A stretch of DNA of 64,000 nucleotides from Acidobacteriaceae bacterium (GTDB lineage: Bacteria > Acidobacteriota > Terriglobia > Terriglobales > Acidobacteriaceae), in assembly GCA_049693715.1 (NCBI GenBank), contig JBAVQC010000317.1:6441-70440 (forward strand), in the 5' to 3' direction. Positions 13,972 through 25,848 of the stretch are shown piece by piece. The number at the start of each line of letters is the position of its first letter. Position 1 is the first letter of the stretch. The notes under the pieces were generated by a model, which worked only from the letters and a program-made list of their open reading frames with translations, was not told the DNA's origin and did not search any database. Made by a program: the position numbers and the translations under genes.

Positions 13972-16125
13972 TCACGCGGCCGTTGCAACCGCGGAGTGCC
14001 GCTCGATTGTCAGCACGGTGATGTCGTCCTCCTGGCCAAATTTCCTGGCTGCTTCCACGATGTCGGCTGCGGGCTGGGTGGAGATGTCTCGGGCGCGATC
14101 GAAGCCGAAGAGTTCGCCTTGCTGATTTTGCGCTTCAATCACGCCGTCTGAGTAGAACGTCAGCCGGCTGCCGGGTGCAAGATAAAACTGGGTGGTTTCA
14201 TAGCGTGCGCCGCTCATTACGCCGAGAGGGAGCGCGCCGGGCAGTTCCACTTCTGTTCCGTCGAGGTACGGCGACAAATGGCCGGCGTTCGCGACAGTCA
14301 CCTCGCCATTGGCGCTGATGTGCGCGACCAGCGCGGTCGAGAAGCTTCCGCCGCCGCGGCCGACGAGGCGCTGGTTTAGGCTGGCCAGCAGTTCGGCGGG
14401 ACCGACTGTGTATTCAGCGACGCCGCGAATGGAGCCCACCAGCTCTGAGACCAGCATGGCCGCGGGCAATCCCTTGCCGGCCACGTCGCCAAGCACCACC
14501 AGCAAACCGCCTTCGCCTGCGGGCAGAATCTGAAAGAAGTCTCCGCCTACCTGCTGCGCGGGCTGATAGACCGACTCCACTTGAAACCCTGGTACATTCT
14601 CGACTTGTTCCGGCAACAGAACCTGCTGCACCTGCTGCGCGGCGGCGAGTTCACCTTCAAGAATGGCCTGGCGGCGGCTCATCTTGGTGGAGCGGAGAAG
14701 CATGATGAGGGCCAGCGCCAGCGTGGAGAGGATTGCCGACACGTTGTCGAGCGAGATGGAGAATGGGCCGGCGGGAAAGCGGTCGATGAGATTCAATCCG
14801 CGCAATGCCTGGCCGCGCAGGCCGCCAAATTGGAAGAGGATTTCAAATCCGATTTCAGCATAGATATAAACGCTGAACAGGACTGCAGGAATAAGCAGAA
14901 TGCCGGCCTCGCGATTGCCGCGACGCCAGTGGATGGCCAGGACGACCGGAATGACCACGGAGAGTAGGACGATAAAGGGAAGATTGCTGAGGAATTGCAC
15001 GGTCAGTGGCAAGACCAGGTAGAGGCCCTGAATGGCGCTGAAGGCGTTCATGATACCGGCGATGATGAGAATGGCGCGCCAACGCCAGCCGATCCGCTGC
15101 TGAACGAAGGAGAAATACAACGAGACCCAGAGAAACGGTGAGACCACGCGAAGTGTGTCCCCAAGAGCCTCCCAATAGAGTGGAAAATTGTGGAAAGCGG
15201 AAATGACAGGCTCTATGGATTCGACGAACGTGAAAACTCCCAGTGCGGCGATCCATAGATATTCAGTCTGCCGGCGCTGTGCGGCGAAGAGCACCAGCGC
15301 GACCAGTCCGAGACAGGCAAGGAGCAGATGATCGAGCCATCTACAGGAGTATTCGCCGATCACGTCAAGCCAGTCGAAGCGCTGGAGCGTGGCTTGCTGC
15401 CCGATGGTCAAATTGCCGGCGGAGTAGCCTGGACTTTGCCCGGTCCATTCGTTGGGAGATATATGCACGCGCAGTGCTACCACGATCGAGCCCGAGGCCA
15501 GCAGGCGGTCAGGAATCGACTCGATGACCTTCGCGTTCCAGGTGTATGGGATGTAGGGAGCGATCTGGCCTTCGGCGATCAGGCGCTCGCCATTGACGTA
15601 GACTTCAAAGGCGCGGGCGATATTTGCTTCGCGCAGCGCCAGGCCGGCCTGGCCGGGGCTGACCTTAACCCGTAGCCGGTACCAGACCACCTGGGGACGA
15701 TTGGTCTTGAAGACGGAGTTGATGTCTCCATGGGGGTCGAAGAGCGCCCATTGGGAGTCGTCGAAGCCGGGGCGGGCGTAGGCTGGGTCGTCCCCCGCGC
15801 GCATGAGCCAGGGGGAATCGAGGTCAGCGGGCTCGCGGAGCTTGGTCGCATCAAAGATCGCCTGGCTGGCTTGAGATGCGTTGCCCTGCGCGTGGCCATA
15901 TGGCCCGCACTTGATCAGGACCACGCAAGCGGCAATGACCACAAAGCGAGTGAGCGAAAAATGCCGGTGGAATTGGTGGGCGGATTCTCGGAGATTGGCA
16001 GAGTTTGGGAAAGAGCCAGGCAAGCGGCCTCCGTAAGACTCCGTTCCACCGTACCATTCCCACCGCCTGCATTCCAGAGCTTGCTTGCTGAGAAGTGTCT
16101 CGAAGTTTCGGGTCACGTAGCTCAA
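13972..16125 (-). CDS. 7TM-DISM receptor fused to SpoIIE/PP2C serine phosphatase
   Basis: 717 aa with a TTG start. It has an N-terminal periplasmic 7TMR-DISMED2-like domain and about seven hydrophobic helices (aa ~270-480). The C-terminal SpoIIE motifs are GGDFF, GDVAGKG, NAGH, YSDGV and EDDITV. Confidence 0.8.
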   Translation of the reverse strand: MSYVTRNFETLLSKQALECRRWEWYGGTESYGGRLPGSFPNSANLRESAHQFHRHFSLTRFVVIAACVVLIKCGPYGHAQGNASQASQAIFDATKLREPADLDSPWLMRAGDDPAYARPGFDDSQWALFDPHGDINSVFKTNRPQVVWYRLRVKVSPGQAGLALREANIARAFEVYVNGERLIAEGQIAPYIPYTWNAKVIESIPDRLLASGSIVVALRVHISPNEWTGQSPGYSAGNLTIGQQATLQRFDWLDVIGEYSCRWLDHLLLACLGLVALVLFAAQRRQTEYLWIAALGVFTFVESIEPVISAFHNFPLYWEALGDTLRVVSPFLWVSLYFSFVQQRIGWRWRAILIIAGIMNAFSAIQGLYLVLPLTVQFLSNLPFIVLLSVVIPVVLAIHWRRGNREAGILLIPAVLFSVYIYAEIGFEILFQFGGLRGQALRGLNLIDRFPAGPFSISLDNVSAILSTLALALIMLLRSTKMSRRQAILEGELAAAQQVQQVLLPEQVENVPGFQVESVYQPAQQVGGDFFQILPAGEGGLLVVLGDVAGKGLPAAMLVSELVGSIRGVAEYTVGPAELLASLNQRLVGRGGGSFSTALVAHISANGEVTVANAGHLSPYLDGTEVELPGALPLGVMSGARYETTQFYLAPGSRLTFYSDGVIEAQNQQGELFGFDRARDISTQPAADIVEAARKFGQEDDITVLTIERHSAVATAA

Positions 16126-16954
16126 CCCCCATCCGAATTTGAGGAGAAATCCGGTGCTAACGGAACACCCTCATGCATAGTCGCGCTGGTAATGACAAAC
16201 TCCTTACAATTGCATGACACAACCAACAACAGCATGTGGTGAACTGGTTTCACCGTCGCTAGGAAACCTGGGGACGGGCGGGACCTTTACGTAATAATTA
16301 CTGTTTCATTATGGGGGTGAACATCCCATCTGTCACTGCCTCCCCGCATATGGATGTCTGTCCACGCTGCCTCTGCATTGGTCCAAGCAAAAGATCGAGG
16401 ACAGTTCGAACGATAATTGTCTGCCCACTCGGAGAATCCCTTCCGCCAAGTCAATGGGAACCTCCGTCTGCCATGGACATTTACCCATCATGGATGTCCA
16501 CGAAATGACCCAAGACCTTGTAACTAATGCCGGTGAACCAAGTCTTATTGGCAGTAGTAAGAACCAAAGAGGGCATCTCGTGGACAAGGCACTTCGTGGA
16601 CAACCGGGACTACCGCCTTCGCGATTGCGTGAGGCCCTAAGTGCCAGTTTCGTCTCCCCAAAGACTCCCACAAACTCCTCCGTCCAATATCCTATGGCAC
16701 ACTCTTCCCAGTTTCCGCTCGGAGCTCTGGCTTCGACGCGAACTGTCTACTTGAAATTCACGACGAACGTATCGACTTCCACCTTTGACCCCAGGAGTAA
16801 CTTGATGTCCACCCCAGCACGTGTTCCTGAGCAAGTGTCTTCTTCAGCGCCAGACCGCCGGTCATTTCTCCGGAGGACGGCTTCTGACCCAAATGATTTT
16901 GTGAAGGGCACGTCGATTGCTGGATCCACTGCAGAAAGGATCCGGTGAACCGCG

Positions 16955-17266
16955 ATGCTTAGGATCACAGTTGTCGATTTGTCTGATAGCGTCGTAGTTC
17001 TTCGGGTAGAGGGCCGGATCACGGGTTGGTGGGTCGAGGAACTCCGCAGAACATGCGCTGCACATGCTTTCGCTGCGCATACTTTCGCTGCCCATACTTT
17101 CGCCGATGAGATTCAGTTATCCCTGGAGTTGTCGAGTGTTTCATTCGCCGATGCGGCTGGGATTGCGCTCCTCAAAGAACTGCGGAGTCGCGGGGCCGAT
17201 CTTATCCGCCCCACCCCATTCGTGGCCGAACAACTCAGGGATTGGCCATCATCCGGCGCAGCCTAA
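16955..17266 (+). CDS. STAS-domain protein (anti-sigma-factor-antagonist-like), atypical
   Basis: 103 aa with a STAS pattern (VVVLRVEGRITG.., ..LELSSVSFADAAGIALLKEL..). The canonical DSSG phospho-site reads DAAG. The gene contains an in-frame pentapeptide repeat. Confidence 0.65.
   Translation: MLRITVVDLSDSVVVLRVEGRITGWWVEELRRTCAAHAFAAHTFAAHTFADEIQLSLELSSVSFADAAGIALLKELRSRGADLIRPTPFVAEQLRDWPSSGAA
17057..17101 (+). repeat. In-frame 15-bp tandem repeat x3 inside the STAS gene
   Basis: The units are gctgcacatgctttc / gctgcgcatactttc / gctgcccatactttc, encoding AAHAF-AAHTF-AAHTF. Confidence 0.9.
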
Positions 17267-19137: not shown

Positions 19138-19406
19138 GCTCTCTTTTCGCAACAACTAGAGGCTTGGAGTGACGGCGGCTGCCAGTCCTGACGCTAAAAC
19201 CAGCGCCTGGGCATGGAGGCCTCTGCCAATTTCCGGGCTAATTGCACTACCGCAGGGCACCACCCCCCCAAAAACCCTGGATTTTGCATTGACCCCGCTT
19301 TTGGCACTACGTTATGAAGAAACCACCGGCCAGGACGCTGCAAAGTAAGGTGAACAAGCAATCTTTGCGTTCCACATTGAATACGTCATTTAAGGGGAAG
19401 AACAAC

Positions 19407-20030
19407 ATGGCTGCAAAACCGGAATTAGCACCGACCATCACTGCGCAGACGATCAAAGCAGCGCAGGAAGCACTTAACAACGCACCGTCCATGGGCGACG
19501 CGCCGGGAGTCGATAAAATCCGCGAGTTGCTTTTCGGTAATCAGATGCAGGACTACGACCGCCGTTTCTCGGTGATGGAAGAGCGTTTTCTACAAAAGGT
19601 GCGCGATCTGGAAGCAGAATCCTCCCGCGCCGTTCAGAGCGTGGAATCCTCGGTGAAGAAACAGCTGGAATCGCTAGCCAGCCAGATTCGCCAGGAACAG
19701 GATCTTCGCGCCGAGGCAGACAAGGAGTTGGGCCGCGGCCTTCGCGAACAGATCCAGGGATTGGAGAAGCATCTCAGCAAGGTTGCCGACCAACTCGCCA
19801 GCCAGGACCGGGACTTCACCGAGAGATTGGCCCACGAATCGCAAACCTTGCGCGAAGAGAGCCGGCGCCGGACCGACGACACTCGGGCTGCCATAGAGCG
19901 GATGCTTGCTGAGCTGATGAATGTCAAAACCGACCGTAGCCTGCTGGCCGGTCTATTCGTCGAAATTGCCCGATGCCTGAATCAGGACGTGACGGCGAAG
20001 TCGAATGGAGCCGGGGCCCAGCGATCCTGA
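19407..20030 (+). CDS. Coiled-coil protein (first gene of the GTPase module)
   Basis: ATG 19407 is preceded by AAGGGGA; an alternative upstream ATG lies at 19314. The 207-aa product is heptad-rich and charged (..QKVRDLEAESSRAVQSVESSVKKQLESLASQIRQEQDLRAEADKEL..). Confidence 0.6.
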   Translation: MAAKPELAPTITAQTIKAAQEALNNAPSMGDAPGVDKIRELLFGNQMQDYDRRFSVMEERFLQKVRDLEAESSRAVQSVESSVKKQLESLASQIRQEQDLRAEADKELGRGLREQIQGLEKHLSKVADQLASQDRDFTERLAHESQTLREESRRRTDDTRAAIERMLAELMNVKTDRSLLAGLFVEIARCLNQDVTAKSNGAGAQRS

Positions 20031-21948
20031 ACTGAATGGGCCGCACGACACCGGTTTTGAAAGGATTATAGCGATCGGAGACACCGTGATTTCCAGTGTT
20101 TCCCTGCTCGACAGGGACAGTTCGGATCCCCCGTTCTTACAGCCCGATGATGCCCGCTCCAAACGGCTCGCCGTGCTGCTGTTTGAGGTAGCGCGAAGCC
20201 TGGATCGCGATCTGGCGACGGCGCTCCCCAGGCTCGAAGGGGATCCGAAACTGGAGGCGCTGCGCAGCTTGATTCTCGAGCAGGATCGAGCCGCGATCGC
20301 AAAGCTGCAGCAGAAATTTGATGATCCGCGGCAGTTCGCTGAAGCCATCAGCTCCGTGCTGGCCGATGCCTTTGCCCTTGCCGGAGCGAGAGACGATCAA
20401 CTCGCAAAGGTGCTGGCGCCAATCCTGGAGCTGGCGACCCAGGCTTCGATCCGCAAAAATCCAGGCACCTTGGTGGGCATCCTCTACCCCCTCATGGGAT
20501 CGGTGGTCCGTAAATCCATCTCCGAGTCTCTGGACGGTACGCTGCAACGCATGAACCAGGCGTTCAAGCACAGCTTCTCATGGCAGGGATTGCGGTGGCG
20601 GCTGGAGGCGTTGCGCAGCGGAAGCAGCTTCGCCGACGTGGTGCTCAAACACACGGTGCAGTTCCGCGTCGAGCACGTCTTCTTAATTCATCGCAAGACC
20701 GGCCTTCTCATCGAGCACGTGGCGGCGCCGGAGGCGACGGCACAGGATCCTCAGTTGGTGTCCGGCATGCTGTCGGCCATCCAGGACTTCGTGCGCGACT
20801 CGTTCGAGGGAACCAATAAGAGCGGGGGAAGCGGCATCGATACCCTGCGGCTTGGCGACCTGCTGTTATGGTGCGAAGAGGGACCATTCGCGTTCCTGGC
20901 CGCCGTCATTCGGGGCAATCCGCCCGAATCGCTGCATGCGGTACTGCGCGAAACACTGACCAACATTCACGACCAATACCGGAGTTCGCTGGAAGAATTC
21001 CAAGGTGACTCCGCGACTCTGGGGGACTTGGCCACGCCACTGGCACTTGACCTGCAGCAACAGGAACGGCCGCGTGAAACGAAGTTGTCACCCTGGCTAT
21101 GGGGCATACCCCTGGTGTTGTTGCTTCTCGCCGGCGCCTGGGTGATACAGCGGACAATTGTCCGGCATCGTGTCGACGCGTATGTCGAGCGGCTGCGTGA
21201 GGAGCCAGGCATCGTGGTTGCCAGCTCCGAATTGCGCAACGGAAAATGGCAAATCTCCGGCTTGCGTGACCCCCTGGCCGCCGATCCCGCCGTAGTGCTC
21301 TCGCAGTCGGGTTTGGATCCTAAACGTGTCGCCGGTCACTGGGAGTCGTACCAGGCACTGAACCCGGCGATCGTTCTCCGGCGTCTTGCCGCCAGTCTGA
21401 ATCCTCCGCCCTCAGTCTCGTTGTCATTGAAGGGCGACACGGTAGAAGTCAGTGGCAGCGTTCCCCAGTACTGGACCGAGCGGGCCAGAGTGCTGGTCGC
21501 GGCGCTACCTGCGGGTTCTCCCAAAGTCGATTTCAGTGGACTCAAGGATATTCAGGATCCGGAATTTATTCGCCTGCGCGATGCTATCCAGGGGCATGTT
21601 ATTGCGTTCGATTCAAATGCAGACAGGCCTGCGCGGGGGCAGGACGCTACGCTGGATGTTGTTGCCGACGAGTTCCACCAACTGATGCGCGTGACCAGGC
21701 GTCTTGGCTTCACTGCCCGCATGATGATTTCCGGCCATGCGGATGCCATCGGCAACGAAACGGCGAACCTATCCCTAAGCGCGGCTCGAGCCGAGGTCGT
21801 CCGCTCCATGCTCAAAGCGCGGGGCATCGCTCCGGAACTGCTGGCCGTGCGCAGCGCCGGTCCACTCGAACCCATGTCGGCTCCCAACGGCAAACCAACC
21901 GCCGCGATGAATCGGAGAGCGACCTTCACCGTGATTGCCAGCGAGTGA
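20005..21948 (+). CDS. Single-pass membrane protein with a large cytoplasmic region (Roadblock/longin-like segment) and a periplasmic OmpA/MotB-type peptidoglycan-binding domain
   Basis: 647 aa. One TM helix at aa 362-381 (LSPWLWGIPLVLLLLAGAWVI). C-terminal OmpA-like motifs are ISGHADAIGNETANLSLSAARAEVVRSML..NRRATFTV. The start overlaps the upstream gene by 26 nt; an alternative GTG lies at 20086. Confidence 0.8.
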   Translation: MEPGPSDPELNGPHDTGFERIIAIGDTVISSVSLLDRDSSDPPFLQPDDARSKRLAVLLFEVARSLDRDLATALPRLEGDPKLEALRSLILEQDRAAIAKLQQKFDDPRQFAEAISSVLADAFALAGARDDQLAKVLAPILELATQASIRKNPGTLVGILYPLMGSVVRKSISESLDGTLQRMNQAFKHSFSWQGLRWRLEALRSGSSFADVVLKHTVQFRVEHVFLIHRKTGLLIEHVAAPEATAQDPQLVSGMLSAIQDFVRDSFEGTNKSGGSGIDTLRLGDLLLWCEEGPFAFLAAVIRGNPPESLHAVLRETLTNIHDQYRSSLEEFQGDSATLGDLATPLALDLQQQERPRETKLSPWLWGIPLVLLLLAGAWVIQRTIVRHRVDAYVERLREEPGIVVASSELRNGKWQISGLRDPLAADPAVVLSQSGLDPKRVAGHWESYQALNPAIVLRRLAASLNPPPSVSLSLKGDTVEVSGSVPQYWTERARVLVAALPAGSPKVDFSGLKDIQDPEFIRLRDAIQGHVIAFDSNADRPARGQDATLDVVADEFHQLMRVTRRLGFTARMMISGHADAIGNETANLSLSAARAEVVRSMLKARGIAPELLAVRSAGPLEPMSAPNGKPTAAMNRRATFTVIASE

Positions 21949-21955
21949 GATCTTA

Positions 21956-22450
21956 ATGCTTCAGAAGAAAGTTTGTCTGTTAGGGGGCTTCGGAGTCGGT
22001 AAGACCAGCCTGGTTCGGCGCTATGTTCAAAGCATCTTTTCGGACGCATACTTAACCACCGTCGGGGTCAAGATCGAGAAGAGGATGGTGAACGTCGGCG
22101 CCGCAGAGGTCGCTCTTATTCTCTGGGATATTGCGGGCGAGGACGACATAACTGGAATACGTATGAGCTATCTTCGGGGCGCTGCGGGATATCTCCTGGT
22201 CGTCGATGTTACGCGGGGGGAAACCCTCGAAGTCGCCAAGTCGATACAGGCTCGGGTAACTTCGGAAATAGGTTCGGTTCCGTTTCTGTTCCTTTTCAAC
22301 AAGTCGGATCTGAAGGAGAACTGGGACATCCCGGAACAGTCCGCCGAAGACTTGACGGAAGCGGGACACGTAGTTCTCCGGACCAGCGCCAAGACCGGCG
22401 AAGGCGTCGAAGAAGCATTTCAGGTACTAGCGAAGCGCATGGTGTCGTGA
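21956..22450 (+). CDS. Ras-superfamily (Rab-like) small GTPase
   Basis: 164 aa from ATG 21956, which puts the P-loop at the canonical position. Motifs: G1 GGFGVGKT, switch I YLTTVGV, G3 WDIAGED, G4 NKSD, G5 TSAK. There is no C-terminal Cys. Confidence 0.85.
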   Translation: MLQKKVCLLGGFGVGKTSLVRRYVQSIFSDAYLTTVGVKIEKRMVNVGAAEVALILWDIAGEDDITGIRMSYLRGAAGYLLVVDVTRGETLEVAKSIQARVTSEIGSVPFLFLFNKSDLKENWDIPEQSAEDLTEAGHVVLRTSAKTGEGVEEAFQVLAKRMVS

Positions 22451-22454
22451 CCAG

Positions 22455-23669
22455 ATGCTGAATATTTCGGACCGCATTTCAGAATGGCTCCTGCTCCTGG
22501 TTAAGTCCCAGCGTTCCATAGCCCATCTTCTCATCGACAAGGAAATGATCCTGATCAAGGCAGGCGGAGATCTGGGGTACTACGGACTGGCTGATCTAAA
22601 GCACCTGCATTCCGCCTCCGATCAATTGCCATTCCTGGAAGGTCTGCTGCCCTTGGCGGAAACACCTTTTGTTTTACAGTCCGTGGGCATGCCTGGCGGA
22701 AGTGTGGCGGACGTTCATCTTTTTGCCGAAGAAGATATGACGTGGGTCGTGCTCCTCGACGTGACCGCGGAACATGACCATACCAGGAAAGTTCAGCAGA
22801 AGGCGTACGACATGACGCTGTTGAGCCAGCGCGAGGCACGCCTCATTGCAAAGCTCGAGGCCGCGCACAAGGAGCTGACGGCGGCTCACCGCGACCTGGC
22901 CGAATCCCGTGATGAGCTTCTACGGACCCACAACCGGCTGCGGCAGGAATTGCACGATGCCGAGCGCTATGTTCTTGCCATCTTGCCGGAGCCCGTCGCG
23001 GAGCCGGTCGCAGTTGACTGGCTCTTCGTTCCTTCCACGGAGCTTGGAGGAGATTCCTTCGGTTATCACTGGATCGATGCTGAGCACTTTGCCCTTTACC
23101 TGCTCGACGTCTGCGGACACGGTGTCGGTTCGGCGTTGCTGTCGATCACGGCGGCGAATGCGCTCCGGTCCGGCGCCTTGCAGAACACCGATTTCCGTAT
23201 GCCTGAAGCAGTGCTGGACTCGTTGAATCGGGCTTTCCAGATGGAAAATCAAAACGGTCTCTATTTCACCATGTGGTACGGCGTCTACCATCGGCCTACA
23301 GGAAGGCTGCGCTATGCAAGCGCCGGGCATCCACCACCCATTCTGGTGAGCGGCCGAGGAGAACAGCGCGGCGAAGCGAAGGCGCTGCCGGGCTTTGGTT
23401 GTCCTGTGGGTATTTTGCCCGACGCCGAGTACGAGAGCCAGGAGTGTACTCTGGCGGGCCCTGCGCGCCTGTTCCTCTTCAGCGACGGCGTTTACGAAAT
23501 CATGCGGCCGGACGGGGAGATGCTGGAATTCGAAGCTTTCGAAGAAGTCCTCACCCGCGCAGTTCCGGAAGGCGCAAGGGAAGTGGAAGAACTCCTCCGT
23601 TTCGTTCGAGACTTCGGCGGCTCGGAAGAACTGGATGATGATTTTTCAATCGTCAAGATGACCATCTAG
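22455..23669 (+). CDS. SpoIIE/PP2C-type serine phosphatase with unassigned N-terminal domain and coiled-coil linker
   Basis: 404 aa. SpoIIE motifs are LGGDSFGY, LLDVCGHGVGSALL, SAGHPPP, FSDGVYE and DDDFSIV. The start lies 4 nt after the GTPase stop codon. Confidence 0.85.
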   Translation: MLNISDRISEWLLLLVKSQRSIAHLLIDKEMILIKAGGDLGYYGLADLKHLHSASDQLPFLEGLLPLAETPFVLQSVGMPGGSVADVHLFAEEDMTWVVLLDVTAEHDHTRKVQQKAYDMTLLSQREARLIAKLEAAHKELTAAHRDLAESRDELLRTHNRLRQELHDAERYVLAILPEPVAEPVAVDWLFVPSTELGGDSFGYHWIDAEHFALYLLDVCGHGVGSALLSITAANALRSGALQNTDFRMPEAVLDSLNRAFQMENQNGLYFTMWYGVYHRPTGRLRYASAGHPPPILVSGRGEQRGEAKALPGFGCPVGILPDAEYESQECTLAGPARLFLFSDGVYEIMRPDGEMLEFEAFEEVLTRAVPEGAREVEELLRFVRDFGGSEELDDDFSIVKMTI

Positions 23670-23943
23670 CCGGCGCGGTACCCTCATCGCGGGGAAATGC
23701 GCAACAGTGAGTGAGAACGATCATCTCAAAATCGAGTCCCTGCGGAACTCGTTTTGCAATCCGAAGGCTCTCACACGCTCTTTAGCCCCTATTCGTACTA
23801 CAAGCCCTCCGTCGGGCGATTTCCCCCGCCCCAGCGATCCAGTTACCCGTCGCAGCAACGGGAAACGCTATAATCCAAAGAATCGACAGATTCAATGGCC
23901 AAGCGGCAGACCTTCCGCGCTGGCATAGGCGATCGAAAGTCTC

Positions 23944-24798
23944 ATGAGCGAACAGGCAGGAAATCTTGAGCAAACCCAGGTAGTCGCCGAACCGACGAAT
24001 CCAGCGTGGATTAAGACTGAACTGGCGCGTCACCCACAGCGGCCCTACCCCATGGATTTCATCCAACGCATCTTTACCGACTTTTCGGAGATCCACGGTG
24101 ACCGCGCCTTCGGCGACGACCTCGCGATGGCTTGCGGTATGGCCCGCTTCCATGGCGAAGAAGTCATGGCCATCGGCAACCTGAAAGGGCGGGGAACCAA
24201 GGAAAAGGTACGCCGCAATTTCGGCATGCCCAATCCGGAAGGCTATCGTAAAGCACTGCGGGCCATGAAAATCGCTGAAAAATTCAATCGGCCCGTATTT
24301 ACCTTCATCGATCTCACCGGCGCCAATCCGGGCATCGCCGCCGAGGAACGCGGCCAGGCAGAGGCCATCGCGCGCAATCTGCGCGAAATGGCTCGCTTAC
24401 GCGTGCCCACCATCGCCACCATTACCGGCGAAGGTGGTTCGGGCGGCGCCTTGGCGTTGGCTGTCGCCGATCGCGTCCTCATGATGGAAAATGCCGTCTA
24501 CTCCGTCATTGCGCCGGAAGCTTGCGGTTCCATTATGTGGCGCGATGCCGGCAAACGCGCCCAAGCCGCGGCTGCCCTGAAAATCACGTCCGAAGATGTA
24601 AGCCGTTTGGGTTGCGTGGACGATGTGGTACGGGAACCCTCCGGGGGAGCTCAGGACGATCCGGTGGCGGCGGCCACCATGCTCGACGAGAAACTTGCCT
24701 GGCATCTCAATGAATTAAAAGCCATGACGGTCGAGGATCGCGTCGCGCGCCGCCTGGCTAAGTTCCGGGAAATTGCCCGGTTCTATATCAACGCCTGA
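23944..24798 (+). CDS. accA: Acetyl-CoA carboxylase carboxyltransferase subunit alpha
   Basis: 284 aa with strongly AccA-like blocks (ARHPQRPY, FIDLTGANPGIAAEERGQAEAIARNL, TGEGGSGGALA). Confidence 0.95.
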   Translation: MSEQAGNLEQTQVVAEPTNPAWIKTELARHPQRPYPMDFIQRIFTDFSEIHGDRAFGDDLAMACGMARFHGEEVMAIGNLKGRGTKEKVRRNFGMPNPEGYRKALRAMKIAEKFNRPVFTFIDLTGANPGIAAEERGQAEAIARNLREMARLRVPTIATITGEGGSGGALALAVADRVLMMENAVYSVIAPEACGSIMWRDAGKRAQAAAALKITSEDVSRLGCVDDVVREPSGGAQDDPVAAATMLDEKLAWHLNELKAMTVEDRVARRLAKFREIARFYINA

Positions 24799-24819: not shown

Positions 24820-25848
24820 ATGCGCTTGACCCAATTCACAGCCGCCGATCGAGTGCGTGCCTTCGGCCACGTCATCATCGCCGGAATTTACTTCTACATC
24901 GCCCAGAGCATCTCGGTCCATGCAGCCAACGGCTTGGCGAGCGGCGCGTGGGTTCCCCTCGTCGATCGCAGCATCTTGCTCTTTCTTCTGGTGGTGGGCT
25001 TCGCCGCCATGGGCCGGGTATTCAATCGCCAGCGCGAGCCCATCCGTGCCATGGGTCTGGTCGTCCGTCCAGGATGGAAACGCGAGTTTGGCCTGGGCGC
25101 CGCGTTGGGCTGGGGGATGTTGCTGGTCAGCATTCTGCCCCTGGTTCTTAGCGGCGGACTCATCATTACCTTCTGGACCATTCCCCGCCAGTTCGGGATT
25201 CTCCTCATTGATCTGCTGATCCTAGCCGTGGCTGCCCTGGCGGAAGAAGTCGCCTTCCGCGGATACCCCTTCCAGCGCCTGATCGATGCCATGGGACCGA
25301 CGATGGCGACCATCGTTTTATCTTTCGTCTTTGCCGGCGTGCACATGTTTAATCCCTCGGCCAGCCGCGCCAGCTTCATAGTCACTGTCTTCAGCAGCTG
25401 GCTGTTGTCGGTAGCGTATCTCCGCACCCGGGCGCTCTGGGTCTGCTGGGGCTGGCATTTTGCCTGGAACGCCAGCATGTGTCTGCTGTTTGGATTACCG
25501 GTGAGTGGCATCACGCAGTTTTCCCCGGTCATTCAAAGCAATACGGTTGGCCCCCTATGGATGACCGGCGGCGACTACGGACCCGAGGCGAGCACGGTAA
25601 CCGCGATCGTTCTACTGATCGGCCTGTTCGTCGTCTATCGCGCCACCCGTAACCTGGCTTATCTTTATACGCAACCGGTCATTGTGGCCGCCGGCCTCCC
25701 GGTTGACCTTGACGCCATGAGCAGCACGCTGGCTCCGCATCATCCGGTCGCTTCCCAATCCTTGCCGGCGGGGCAAACGCTGGTGCAAATCGAAGCCGCT
25801 CCCGGGCCGCCGCCACCTCGAACCCAACCTCCAGAGCCGCCCGAATGA
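24820..25848 (+). CDS. CPBP family intramembrane glutamic endopeptidase (CAAX protease/Abi-like)
   Basis: Polytopic membrane protein with EEVAFRGY (EExxxR) and downstream FAGVH / HFAWN motifs. Confidence 0.8.
   Translation: MRLTQFTAADRVRAFGHVIIAGIYFYIAQSISVHAANGLASGAWVPLVDRSILLFLLVVGFAAMGRVFNRQREPIRAMGLVVRPGWKREFGLGAALGWGMLLVSILPLVLSGGLIITFWTIPRQFGILLIDLLILAVAALAEEVAFRGYPFQRLIDAMGPTMATIVLSFVFAGVHMFNPSASRASFIVTVFSSWLLSVAYLRTRALWVCWGWHFAWNASMCLLFGLPVSGITQFSPVIQSNTVGPLWMTGGDYGPEASTVTAIVLLIGLFVVYRATRNLAYLYTQPVIVAAGLPVDLDAMSSTLAPHHPVASQSLPAGQTLVQIEAAPGPPPPRTQPPEPPE

Follow-up and report, generated by a model that had tools for sequence, protein, structure and literature searches.

The Group 1 Rup family and the locus in question

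The closest described systems to the locus analysed here are the neighbourhoods of the Group 1 Rup GTPases (Rup1), which were defined by Wuichet and Søgaard-Andersen (2014, Genome Biol Evol 7:57; PMC4316618). According to these authors, the GTPase is accompanied by three further conserved genes, the first of which encodes a predicted cytoplasmic coiled-coil protein, while the second encodes a conserved domain whose function is unknown (DUF) followed by a transmembrane (TM) helix and an OmpA domain, referred to as DUFX:OmpA. The output protein ‘typically’ contains GGDEF/EAL domains or a histidine kinase and has an N-terminal region with an invariant Gln (PMC4316618). The Group 1 proteins themselves have no catalytic Gln in the G3 motif, for which the authors speculated about a supply in trans, and no Rup protein had been characterised, as stated in the same paper. 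In its Table S2, the locus is noted as DUFY>DUFX:OmpA>Rup>, with GTPases of 158–181 aa; 27 Group 1 rows were published, with Mesorhizobium among the listed genera, and the hosts belong to the Bacteroidetes, Chloroflexi, Cyanobacteria, Nitrospirae and the Alpha-, Gamma-, Delta- and Epsilonproteobacteria (PMC4316618). The present study deals with a four-gene locus at positions 19407–23669 of a stretch of 64,000 nucleotides (nt) from an Acidobacteriaceae bacterium (assembly GCA_049693715.1, contig JBAVQC010000317.1, positions 6,441 to 70,440), the whole of which is referred to as the window. Positions are those of the window, and the features described are located on the + strand unless indicated otherwise.

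The four genes encode, in this order, a coiled-coil protein (gene 1), an envelope protein (gene 2), a Ras/Rab-like GTPase (gene 3) and a SpoIIE/PP2C phosphatase (gene 4). We consider this locus to be, more likely than not, a Group 1 Rup GTPase cassette, i.e., a mobile four-gene unit with a PP2C output and the signalling mechanism proposed below. The defining features of the published neighbourhood that were compared are all present: a single-domain Ras-superfamily GTPase with eukaryote-like G1–G5 motifs, a G3 motif without the catalytic Gln (DIAGE), an adjacent coiled-coil gene that is homologous to the first gene of the cassettes from Mesorhizobium and from two further loci (L026 and L033), an adjacent DUFX:OmpA gene, with the gene order of the window being that of Table S2, and a fourth gene for an output protein, in whose N-terminal region Q115 (and Q114) is conserved to at least 90%.

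An earlier reading of the window from its sequence, hereafter the original prediction, had regarded the arrangement as not a characterised architecture. As a claim of novelty this is not supported in the form given, since the core architecture was already published as the Group 1 Rup neighbourhood (PMC4316618). The original prediction would have been refuted by an already characterised system, and here the answer is divided, as the system is described in PMC4316618 but experimentally uncharacterised. The later literature searched on Rup1 contains phylogenetic mentions only, in which it clusters with eukaryotic Rab/Ras/Rho/Ran and with Asgard RasL. What is new compared with PMC4316618 is the PP2C output and the occurrence in Acidobacteriota and Betaproteobacteria. 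The terms ‘phosphatase’, ‘PP2C’ and ‘SpoIIE’ are absent from the text and supplements of that paper, Acidobacteria are represented there by MglA entries only, and Variovorax is not among the 27 Group 1 rows. Further additions are the assignment of the N-terminal region of the output protein as PAS-like, a conserved Phe12 in the GTPase, outputs of the cyclase, HD-GYP and sigma-54 activator types, and a fusion to the envelope protein.

Conservation of the cassette and diversity of its outputs

When genomes were scanned with the cytoplasmic portion of gene 2, 24 loci were obtained. With all four proteins as tblastn queries, the full four-gene order was found in 20 Acidobacteriaceae-type genomes, one of which ends inside the GTPase gene at the end of the contig. 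The same four-gene PP2C cassette is present in two cultured Variovorax strains of the Betaproteobacteria, V. defluvii JCM 17804 and Variovorax sp. JS1663 (L020 and L021), with 54–65% identity, and the four genes were likewise found in one genome of the Vicinamibacteraceae and on two more long contigs. Overall, the order is kept at loci L001–L022, L025, L031 and L032, so that more than 20 genomes share it, which belong to two acidobacterial classes and to the Betaproteobacteria. This recurrence is, judged from the loci compared, far beyond chance. The flanking genes differ in every lineage, and the algH-like and accA neighbours of the window are not conserved; since the four genes are kept together while the flanks change, they form a self-contained cassette. 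The original prediction, which described an operon-like unit apart from a yqgE-like gene and accA and would have been refuted by the lack of a conserved neighbourhood in related genomes, is borne out in this respect, as the genes co-occur and stay adjacent in Acidobacteriota and Betaproteobacteria. Taken together with the non-conserved flanks, the degree of identity to the Variovorax proteins suggests that the complete PP2C cassette was passed on as a whole by horizontal transfer.

The N-terminal domain of gene 4 (N-domain) allowed the search to be extended beyond the PP2C type. An exhaustive search with residues 1–118 resulted in 484 clusters (50% identity) at E ≤ 1e-3, and the domain is located at or near the N-terminus in 150 of 150 proteins among the matches listed. 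A further homology search with the N-domain profile retrieved mostly short fragments, which were used as handles for neighbourhood look-ups. Among 85 full-length N-domain proteins, the outputs were HATPase_c (32), class III cyclase (16) and SpoIIE (7, including the protein of the window itself), with one sigma-54 activator and one GGDEF+EAL protein as rarer types, and REC and PAS inserts were also found in this set. PP2C-type members occur in metagenome-assembled genomes (MAGs) of Gammaproteobacteria as well.

Homologous cassettes with cyclase, HD-GYP or kinase outputs were found in Mesorhizobium, Treponema and metagenomes, the output of the Treponema cassette being of the HD-GYP type. The plasmid of Mesorhizobium sp. 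WSM1497 is annotated with a hypothetical protein, an OmpA family protein, a Rab family GTPase, as PGAP names it, and an adenylate cyclase in succession, which are 55, 49, 57 and 41% identical to genes 1–4 of the window. In four of four additional unrelated contigs (L026, L027, L029 and L030), the N-domain gene directly follows a Ras-family gene on its 3' side, and where the contig extends far enough, an OmpA protein and a protein of about 200 aa without Pfam match are located upstream. As far as can be judged from these alignments, each of the four proteins of the window therefore has its homologue in cassettes of many phyla, and what distinguishes these cassettes is solely the catalytic domain of the fourth protein, its PAS-like domain and signalling helix being the constant part across the cassettes compared. 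Two loci deviate in how the N-domain is connected. In L026 it is a separate protein of 132 aa, and a kinase comes next. In L033 the DUFX-OmpA protein carries it as an N-terminal fusion, with the GTPase, a kinase and a sigma-54 response regulator following. Judging from the fusion in L033, the envelope protein, the GTPase and the PAS-like domain may act as one physical complex.

Two observations on individual cassettes may be added. The PP2C cassette of Variovorax is as close to the acidobacterial one as, or closer than, the cassettes with cyclase or kinase outputs elsewhere. On the Nostoc flagelliforme plasmid pNFSY07 (L035 9526–10597), the cassette consists of a hypothetical protein, an OmpA family protein, a Rab family GTPase, a further hypothetical protein and an ATP-binding protein, after which come an anti-sigma regulatory factor and then a phosphatase of the SpoIIE family. 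These neighbours are possibly a second link of Rup cassettes to partner switching, or else a coincidence in a genome rich in such genes.

The GTPase

Gene 3 (21956–22450) encodes the 164-aa Rup1 protein, for which the earlier description as a complete Ras/Rab-like G domain was confirmed (Ras PF00071, E 2e-32), with canonical G1, G2, G4 and G5 motifs and a G3 motif of the DxxG form. The closest solved structures are those of Rab23, Rab2 and Rab14 (E 1e-25). The G1 motif GGFGVGKT is located at 21983–22006, the G2 Thr at 22055–22069, G3 (DIAGE) at 22127–22141, G4 (NKSD) at 22298–22309 and G5 (SAK) at 22385–22393. For a comparison of the motifs, ten cassette GTPases were aligned with H-Ras. The position of Ras-Gln61, which is a Glu in the window, is occupied by Glu or Lys in 10 of 10 cassette GTPases, and the position of Ras-Gly12 by Phe in 10 of 10, while G1–G5 are otherwise canonical apart from the missing Gln61. 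Within this alignment, the Phe at the Gly12 position is a previously unreported constant of the cassette GTPases.

The protein ends with KRMVS and has no CaaX box. A protein of the CPBP family (Rce1-like CAAX proteases) is encoded two genes downstream, at 24820–25848 (+). Its proximity looks coincidental in view of this C-terminus, and also because the relatives have not kept this neighbour.

The output protein

The fourth gene (22455–23669) had been described as a SpoIIE-type PP2C phosphatase with an unassigned N-terminal domain and a coiled-coil linker. The phosphatase domain, at aa 209–402 (23079–23660), was confirmed (PF07228, E 1e-43), and its metal-binding motifs are intact (GGD198–200, D218-x-x-GHG, D344-G and D394–396), with the Asp motifs being invariant among 20 homologues. 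The closest solved phosphatases are RssB from P. aeruginosa (3eq2, E 2e-19), Rv1364c (3ke6) and SiaA (6k4e), in all of which a regulatory module at the N-terminus is combined with a helical linker.

The N-domain is indeed without a family assignment, but its fold can now be described. The AlphaFold model of aa 1–103 (22455–22763), the ‘N-term’ region of the Group 1 Rup outputs, was calculated from a 107-sequence alignment and reached a predicted local distance difference test (pLDDT) of 92 and a predicted template modelling score (pTM) of 0.77. It consists of a helix, two strands, short helices and three strands, followed by a long helix from residue 104, the part 104–134 of which was modelled with a pLDDT above 90. 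In Foldseek, the model matched the PAS domains of bacteriophytochromes, RHA05790, FlrB, the LOV-kinase YF1 and the RsbU-like Rv1364c (E about 4e-4, TM-score about 0.5), and the domain ends with D-V-T-x-E, the usual junction between a PAS domain and its helix. Because of the confident model, these structural matches and the junction, the N-domain is, at the level of the predicted fold, an input module of a divergent PAS-like kind. It is joined to a signalling helix, which as a linker extends over aa 104–185 (22764–23009).

The near-invariant positions of the N-domain are P5, G38, Y43, G44, L61, G63, P66, D86, W97, Q114 and Q115. The Q114–Q115 pair (22794–22799) is located on the linker helix and is conserved to at least 90% across 85–107 diverse N-domain members. 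When the heptads are assigned by eye, with V113 and M120 at a, L123 and L130 at d and L134 at a, the pair falls on the b/c positions, which are predicted to be exposed.

Some related sequences were noted in passing. The kinases of L033 (8824–10035) and L026 (5741–6874), which are detached from the N-domain, have a conserved N-terminus of their own, FPFLENF-x-IDAEEFW, which by eye resembles a second, divergent copy of the PAS-like N-domain. In the window, a second SpoIIE-family phosphatase of 717 aa (13972–16125, − strand; PF07228, E 1.5e-36) is encoded 3 kb upstream of the cassette. Between the two, a 103-aa open reading frame (ORF) at 16955–17266 (+) shows a weak STAS match (E 2.7e-4, below the Pfam cut-off), in which, by eye, DAAG stands in place of DSSG, with Ala instead of the phosphorylatable Ser of SpoIIAA/RsbV. 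It is preceded by a 164-aa ORF without Pfam match, the pair spanning 16454–17266 (+). The STAS-like ORF, 2 kb upstream, could be the remnant of a partner-switching system, and is present beside the cassette in this window only.

The envelope protein and the coiled-coil protein

Gene 2 (20005–21948) encodes the DUFX-TM-OmpA envelope protein, which comprises 647 aa if ATG 20005 is the start, although 620 aa, with GTG 20086 as the start, is more likely; the aa positions below refer to the 647-aa form. It had been described as a cytoplasmic part, one TM helix and a periplasmic peptidoglycan-binding domain of the OmpA/MotB type, and this layout was found again. The sole TM helix (aa 361–382, 21085–21150) was read from the sequence as LSPWLWGIPLVLLLLAGAWVIQ and lies inside one continuous helix of the AlphaFold model. 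The periplasmic part (21151–21945) consists of two small alpha/beta modules and the OmpA-like peptidoglycan-binding domain, which is recognised by Pfam at aa 572–636 (PF00691, E 3e-9; match at 21718–21912) and carries the peptidoglycan-binding motif NxxLSxxRA in the form NLSLSAARAEVV at aa 588. This half was modelled with a pLDDT of 75–93, and Foldseek matched it to Rv0899 (BON plus OmpA-like), Pal, YfiB and OprF. The label ‘MotB-type’, on the other hand, should be replaced by ‘OmpA-like peptidoglycan-binding domain’. No gene for a channel partner of the MotA/ExbB/TolQ type was found in the window near the cassette, and the TM helix contains neither Asp nor any other acidic residue, so that gene 2 resembles MotB in its OmpA-like domain only.

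On the cytoplasmic side, the conserved region of gene 2 (aa 80–351, 20242–21057) is composed of helices followed by an alpha/beta core (aa 190–351) and is still conserved at 27–35% identity in Treponema and Nostoc. Its AlphaFold model is of low confidence (pLDDT 27–65), because the homologues used were 74–90% identical. A profile search of the core against the PDB sequences gave nothing at E 10, the comparison with Pfam yielded noise only, without a Robl_LC7 match even at E 10, and Foldseek with the full model matched the OmpA-like domain only. Two candidate folds were rejected. By eye, the core could be read as a beta-beta-alpha-beta-beta-beta-alpha arrangement of the Roadblock/longin type, but hhalign against an MglB alignment built with 6h5b_B and 1j3w_A gave a probability of 0.3% (E 0.18), and homology of the core to the PAS-like N-domain of gene 4 was likewise not significant in hhalign.

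Two of the related envelope proteins differ in their organisation. The Mesorhizobium sp. WSM1497 protein of the OmpA family (plasmid pWSM1497, L034 5949–7901) is 1021 aa long, and four consecutive stretches of it match the first ~116 aa of the periplasmic region of the window protein with 44–47% identity each, so that this stretch appears there in four tandem repeats ahead of the OmpA-like domain. In an Acetobacteraceae MAG (L030, 40–1635), the cytoplasmic DUF (407 aa) and the OmpA domain (109 aa) are called as separate genes, which is either a real split or an assembly frameshift.

The first gene (19407–20030) encodes a cytoplasmic alpha-helical protein of 207 aa, a probable coiled coil, which corresponds to the ‘DUFY’ of Group 1 Rup. 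Residues 46–200 are free of Pro and rich in E, R, Q, L and A, and Pfam gave no real family, only weak matches of the coiled-coil type. The protein is 55% identical to the first gene product of the Mesorhizobium cassette (E 9e-55), 36% to that of L033 (E 2e-32) and 29% to that of L026 (E 1e-26). By these pairwise comparisons, its likeness to the first genes of distant cassettes is one of homology and goes beyond shared composition.

Locus layout and expression signals

The four ORFs run in one direction at 19314/19407–20030, 20005–21948, 21935/21956–22450 and 22455–23669, which confirms the four co-directional, closely spaced genes of the original prediction and their coordinates; their domain content was confirmed by Pfam and NCBIfam. 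The non-coding DNA that had been estimated at about 270 nt on each side measures 269 nt upstream (19138–19406), where the promoter region is presumed and where the Shine-Dalgarno sequence AAGGGG of gene 1 is located, and 274 nt downstream (23670–23943), ahead of accA. With the start codons of the original prediction, genes 1 and 2 overlap by 26 nt, genes 2 and 3 are 7 nt apart and genes 3 and 4 are 4 nt apart; the first of these junctions is in doubt. Most database entries use a start equivalent to GTG 20086 for gene 2, which is preceded by GGAG, and the overlap of genes 1 and 2 is therefore perhaps a gap of 55 nt. For gene 1, the 207-aa form from ATG 19407 is preferred to the 238-aa form from ATG 19314, because the strong Shine-Dalgarno sequence lies upstream of it and the distant homologues have 201–207 aa.

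Consensus scans detected no sigma-70-like promoter in the upstream flank, no intrinsic terminator in the downstream flank and, inside the cassette, no promoter or terminator signals above the shuffled expectation; neither flank matched a regulatory RNA family in Rfam. Therefore, the operon status is supported by spacing and synteny only, and the absence of internal signals agrees with a single operon, without proving co-transcription. The GC content is even across the region, and an Acidobacteriaceae MAG protein is 100% identical to that of the window. Downstream of the cassette, the accA ORF (23944–24798, +; 284 aa) does not have the usual N-terminal segment: the Pfam ACCA match begins at position 53 of 310, and there is no in-frame start upstream after the preceding stop codon.

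Proposed mechanism and alternative explanations

The comparisons above show the components of the cassette, their homology, their conservation and their modular use; the mechanism that follows is inferred. The single-pass envelope protein would be fixed to the peptidoglycan via its OmpA-like domain, and it and the coiled-coil protein would form a platform close to the membrane. The conserved cytoplasmic domain of this platform would determine in which nucleotide state the GTPase is, as a guanine nucleotide exchange factor (GEF) and/or a GTPase-activating protein (GAP). The GTP-bound Rup would then bind the PAS-like domain of the dimeric output protein and shift the register or rigidity of the coiled-coil linker, which would switch on the PP2C domain as in the RsbT-RsbU and RsbQ-RsbP types. 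The substrate would be a Ser/Thr phosphoprotein encoded elsewhere, most plausibly a partner-switching protein of the STAS type. Finally, the GTPase, which lacks Gln61 and has a bulky residue instead of a small one at position 12, may have its active site completed in trans by the exposed Gln pair with which the linker helix begins, in which case the effector would itself be the GAP and would time the signal. The original prediction of an envelope-tethered G-protein switch that controls a dephosphorylation is thereby supported as a hypothesis, namely by the cassette, the PAS-like input and the modular outputs, although it had essentially already been proposed for the family. The most specific form of the mechanism, a G-protein-coupled pathway across the envelope with the peptidoglycan-bound receptor as exchange factor and a PAS-like effector that both reads the GTP form and, by supplying the Gln, serves as GAP, is put forward tentatively, as possible rather than probable.

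Several points weigh against this interpretation. The assignment to the Rup1 family is taken from gene order, motifs and the homology to Mesorhizobium, and no experiments on Rup1 systems were found in the literature searched. For the cytoplasmic domain of gene 2, neither a GEF nor a GAP role has a basis in homology, the Roadblock/MglB-like idea being unsupported, and the direction of the information flow is an assumption. The supply of Gln in trans is suggested by conservation and by heptads assigned by eye only, and the Gln could instead pack against the PAS sheet. Moreover, no gene for a substrate is conserved beside the cassette, as the flanks differ in every lineage.

The same parts could also serve to decide where the phosphatase acts rather than to switch it allosterically, in the way that Rab and MglA act. 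The coiled-coil and peptidoglycan-anchored proteins would then mark a site at the envelope, to which Rup-GTP recruits the phosphatase via the PAS-like domain. That the GTPase is most similar to the Rabs, which are recruitment switches, and that the module includes a long helical protein and a wall-anchored protein fit such a role, as does the fusion in L033, according to which the PAS-like domain can work while permanently tethered to the membrane. However, each output is a dimeric enzyme on a signalling helix with the PAS-type D-x-T junction, which is the standard allosteric layout, and we regard recruitment as a serious but unlikely explanation. It is also conceivable, if rather improbable, that the signal flows in the opposite direction, with the PAS-like protein as sensor and GAP and with the envelope and coiled-coil proteins, on which the GTPase would act, as the output. 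PAS domains are usually sensors, the conserved Gln would suit a GAP, and OmpA-like proteins can be effectors of envelope architecture. Nevertheless, it is the fourth protein that varies, and what varies in it is a catalytic domain for signalling, a pattern of outputs rather than inputs; the PAS-like domain, which is small and strongly conserved, gives no sign of a ligand pocket, and in L033 the complete kinase and the sigma-54 regulator after the GTPase point to a downstream transcriptional output.

Finally, a mobile unit in which an NTPase is combined with a coiled-coil protein and with a membrane protein that binds peptidoglycan is loosely reminiscent of Zorya, and the cassette was therefore considered as an anti-phage defence or conflict system. 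The non-conserved flanks and the 54–65% identity of the Variovorax copy, which suggests horizontal transfer, would be in line with this, and PADLOC gave weak matches to the tails of ZorA and to the OmpA domain of ZorB. These matches are at noise level (E 4e-5 to 9e-3) and concern generic coiled-coil and OmpA segments, while the GTPase and the phosphatase have none. The cassette contains no nuclease, protease, pore-forming or NAD-degrading effector, its outputs are ordinary domains of second-messenger and phospho-signalling, and no defence genes are located nearby. With no significant match to a system-specific protein model, an identity as Zorya or as another PADLOC defence system was rejected, and a defence function of any kind is considered very improbable.

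Implications

Returning to the trans-envelope pathway, its PP2C variant would, if the reading is true, couple the state of the cell wall to a partner-switching or general-stress phosphatase, and a small GTPase would be added to the known inputs that control phosphatases of the RsbU type. Rup1 proteins are the bacterial small GTPases closest to eukaryotic Rab/Ras/Rho/Ran, and because they group with these in published trees, the pathway would be the closest bacterial model for Ras-type effector signalling before the eukaryotes. The cassette is also far broader than the 27 loci first listed, considering that the input domain alone accounts for 484 clusters at 50% identity, and the same putative GTPase-reading PAS-like domain is joined to kinases, cyclases, phosphatases, HD-GYP enzymes and sigma-54 activators. 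Concrete residues are available for tests, namely Phe12 and Glu61 of the GTPase and, on the helix of the effector, Q114/Q115, as are culturable hosts, with V. defluvii JCM 17804 and Variovorax sp. JS1663 for the PP2C type and Mesorhizobium sp. WSM1497 for the cyclase type.

Comparison with known signalling systems

Of the systems with a peptidoglycan-bound component, the MotB/ExbD/TolR stators share only the OmpA-like domain with gene 2, as their MotA/ExbB/TolQ partner and the Asp in the TM helix are absent here. The YfiB-YfiR-YfiN (TpbB) pathway of cyclic di-GMP signalling is similar in that an OmpA-like, peptidoglycan-bound protein relays the state of the envelope to a cytoplasmic enzyme; however, YfiB is an outer-membrane lipoprotein that sequesters the periplasmic YfiR, and no GTPase is involved.

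Among the GTPase systems, MglA/MglB of Myxococcus and Thermus likewise consists of a prokaryotic small GTPase under the control of a dedicated adjacent partner. MglA, however, has an intrinsic Arg finger and a catalytic Gln (TVPGQ or GTPGQ in G3), and its GAP, MglB, is a Roadblock dimer, whereas the G3 motif in the window is DIAGE and the core of gene 2 has no significant similarity to MglB. The actinobacterial conservon (CvnA-D; MfpA-E in mycobacteria), which was proposed as a bacterial G-protein-coupled signalling unit, is also a multi-gene cassette in which a small Ras-like GTPase is accompanied by a sensor component associated with the membrane. It differs in its MglA-type GTPase (GTPGQ in G3), the histidine-kinase-like CvnA, the Roadblock protein CvnB and the DUF742 protein CvnC, and none of the CvnA-D families was detected in the four proteins of the window. 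In eukaryotes, Rap is a GTPase without the catalytic Gln61, as is the one described here, and a residue that promotes hydrolysis is therefore expected from a partner. For Rap, this is the Asn ‘thumb’ of a dedicated domain in RapGAP, whereas the candidate in the window is a Gln on the signalling helix of the effector.

The PPM phosphatases of the RsbT-RsbU, RsbQ-RsbP and RssB types belong to the same family as gene 4 and combine a regulatory N-terminal domain, a helical linker and a PP2C domain; as in gene 4, a PAS domain is located upstream of PP2C in RsbP and Rv1364c. In RsbU, a partner protein that binds the N-terminal module activates the enzyme through the linker. The known activators are, however, the kinase-like RsbT, the hydrolase RsbQ or the phosphorylation of a receiver domain, whereas a Ras-like GTPase is proposed for the window, and no STAS or anti-sigma kinase genes are conserved beside cassettes of its type. 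The greatest agreement is with the Group 1 Rup neighbourhoods, which share the gene order, the coiled-coil protein, the DUF-TM-OmpA protein, the GTPase without Gln in G3 and the invariant Gln in the N-terminal region of the output; the window differs from them in its SpoIIE/PP2C output, as opposed to the published GGDEF/EAL and histidine kinase outputs.

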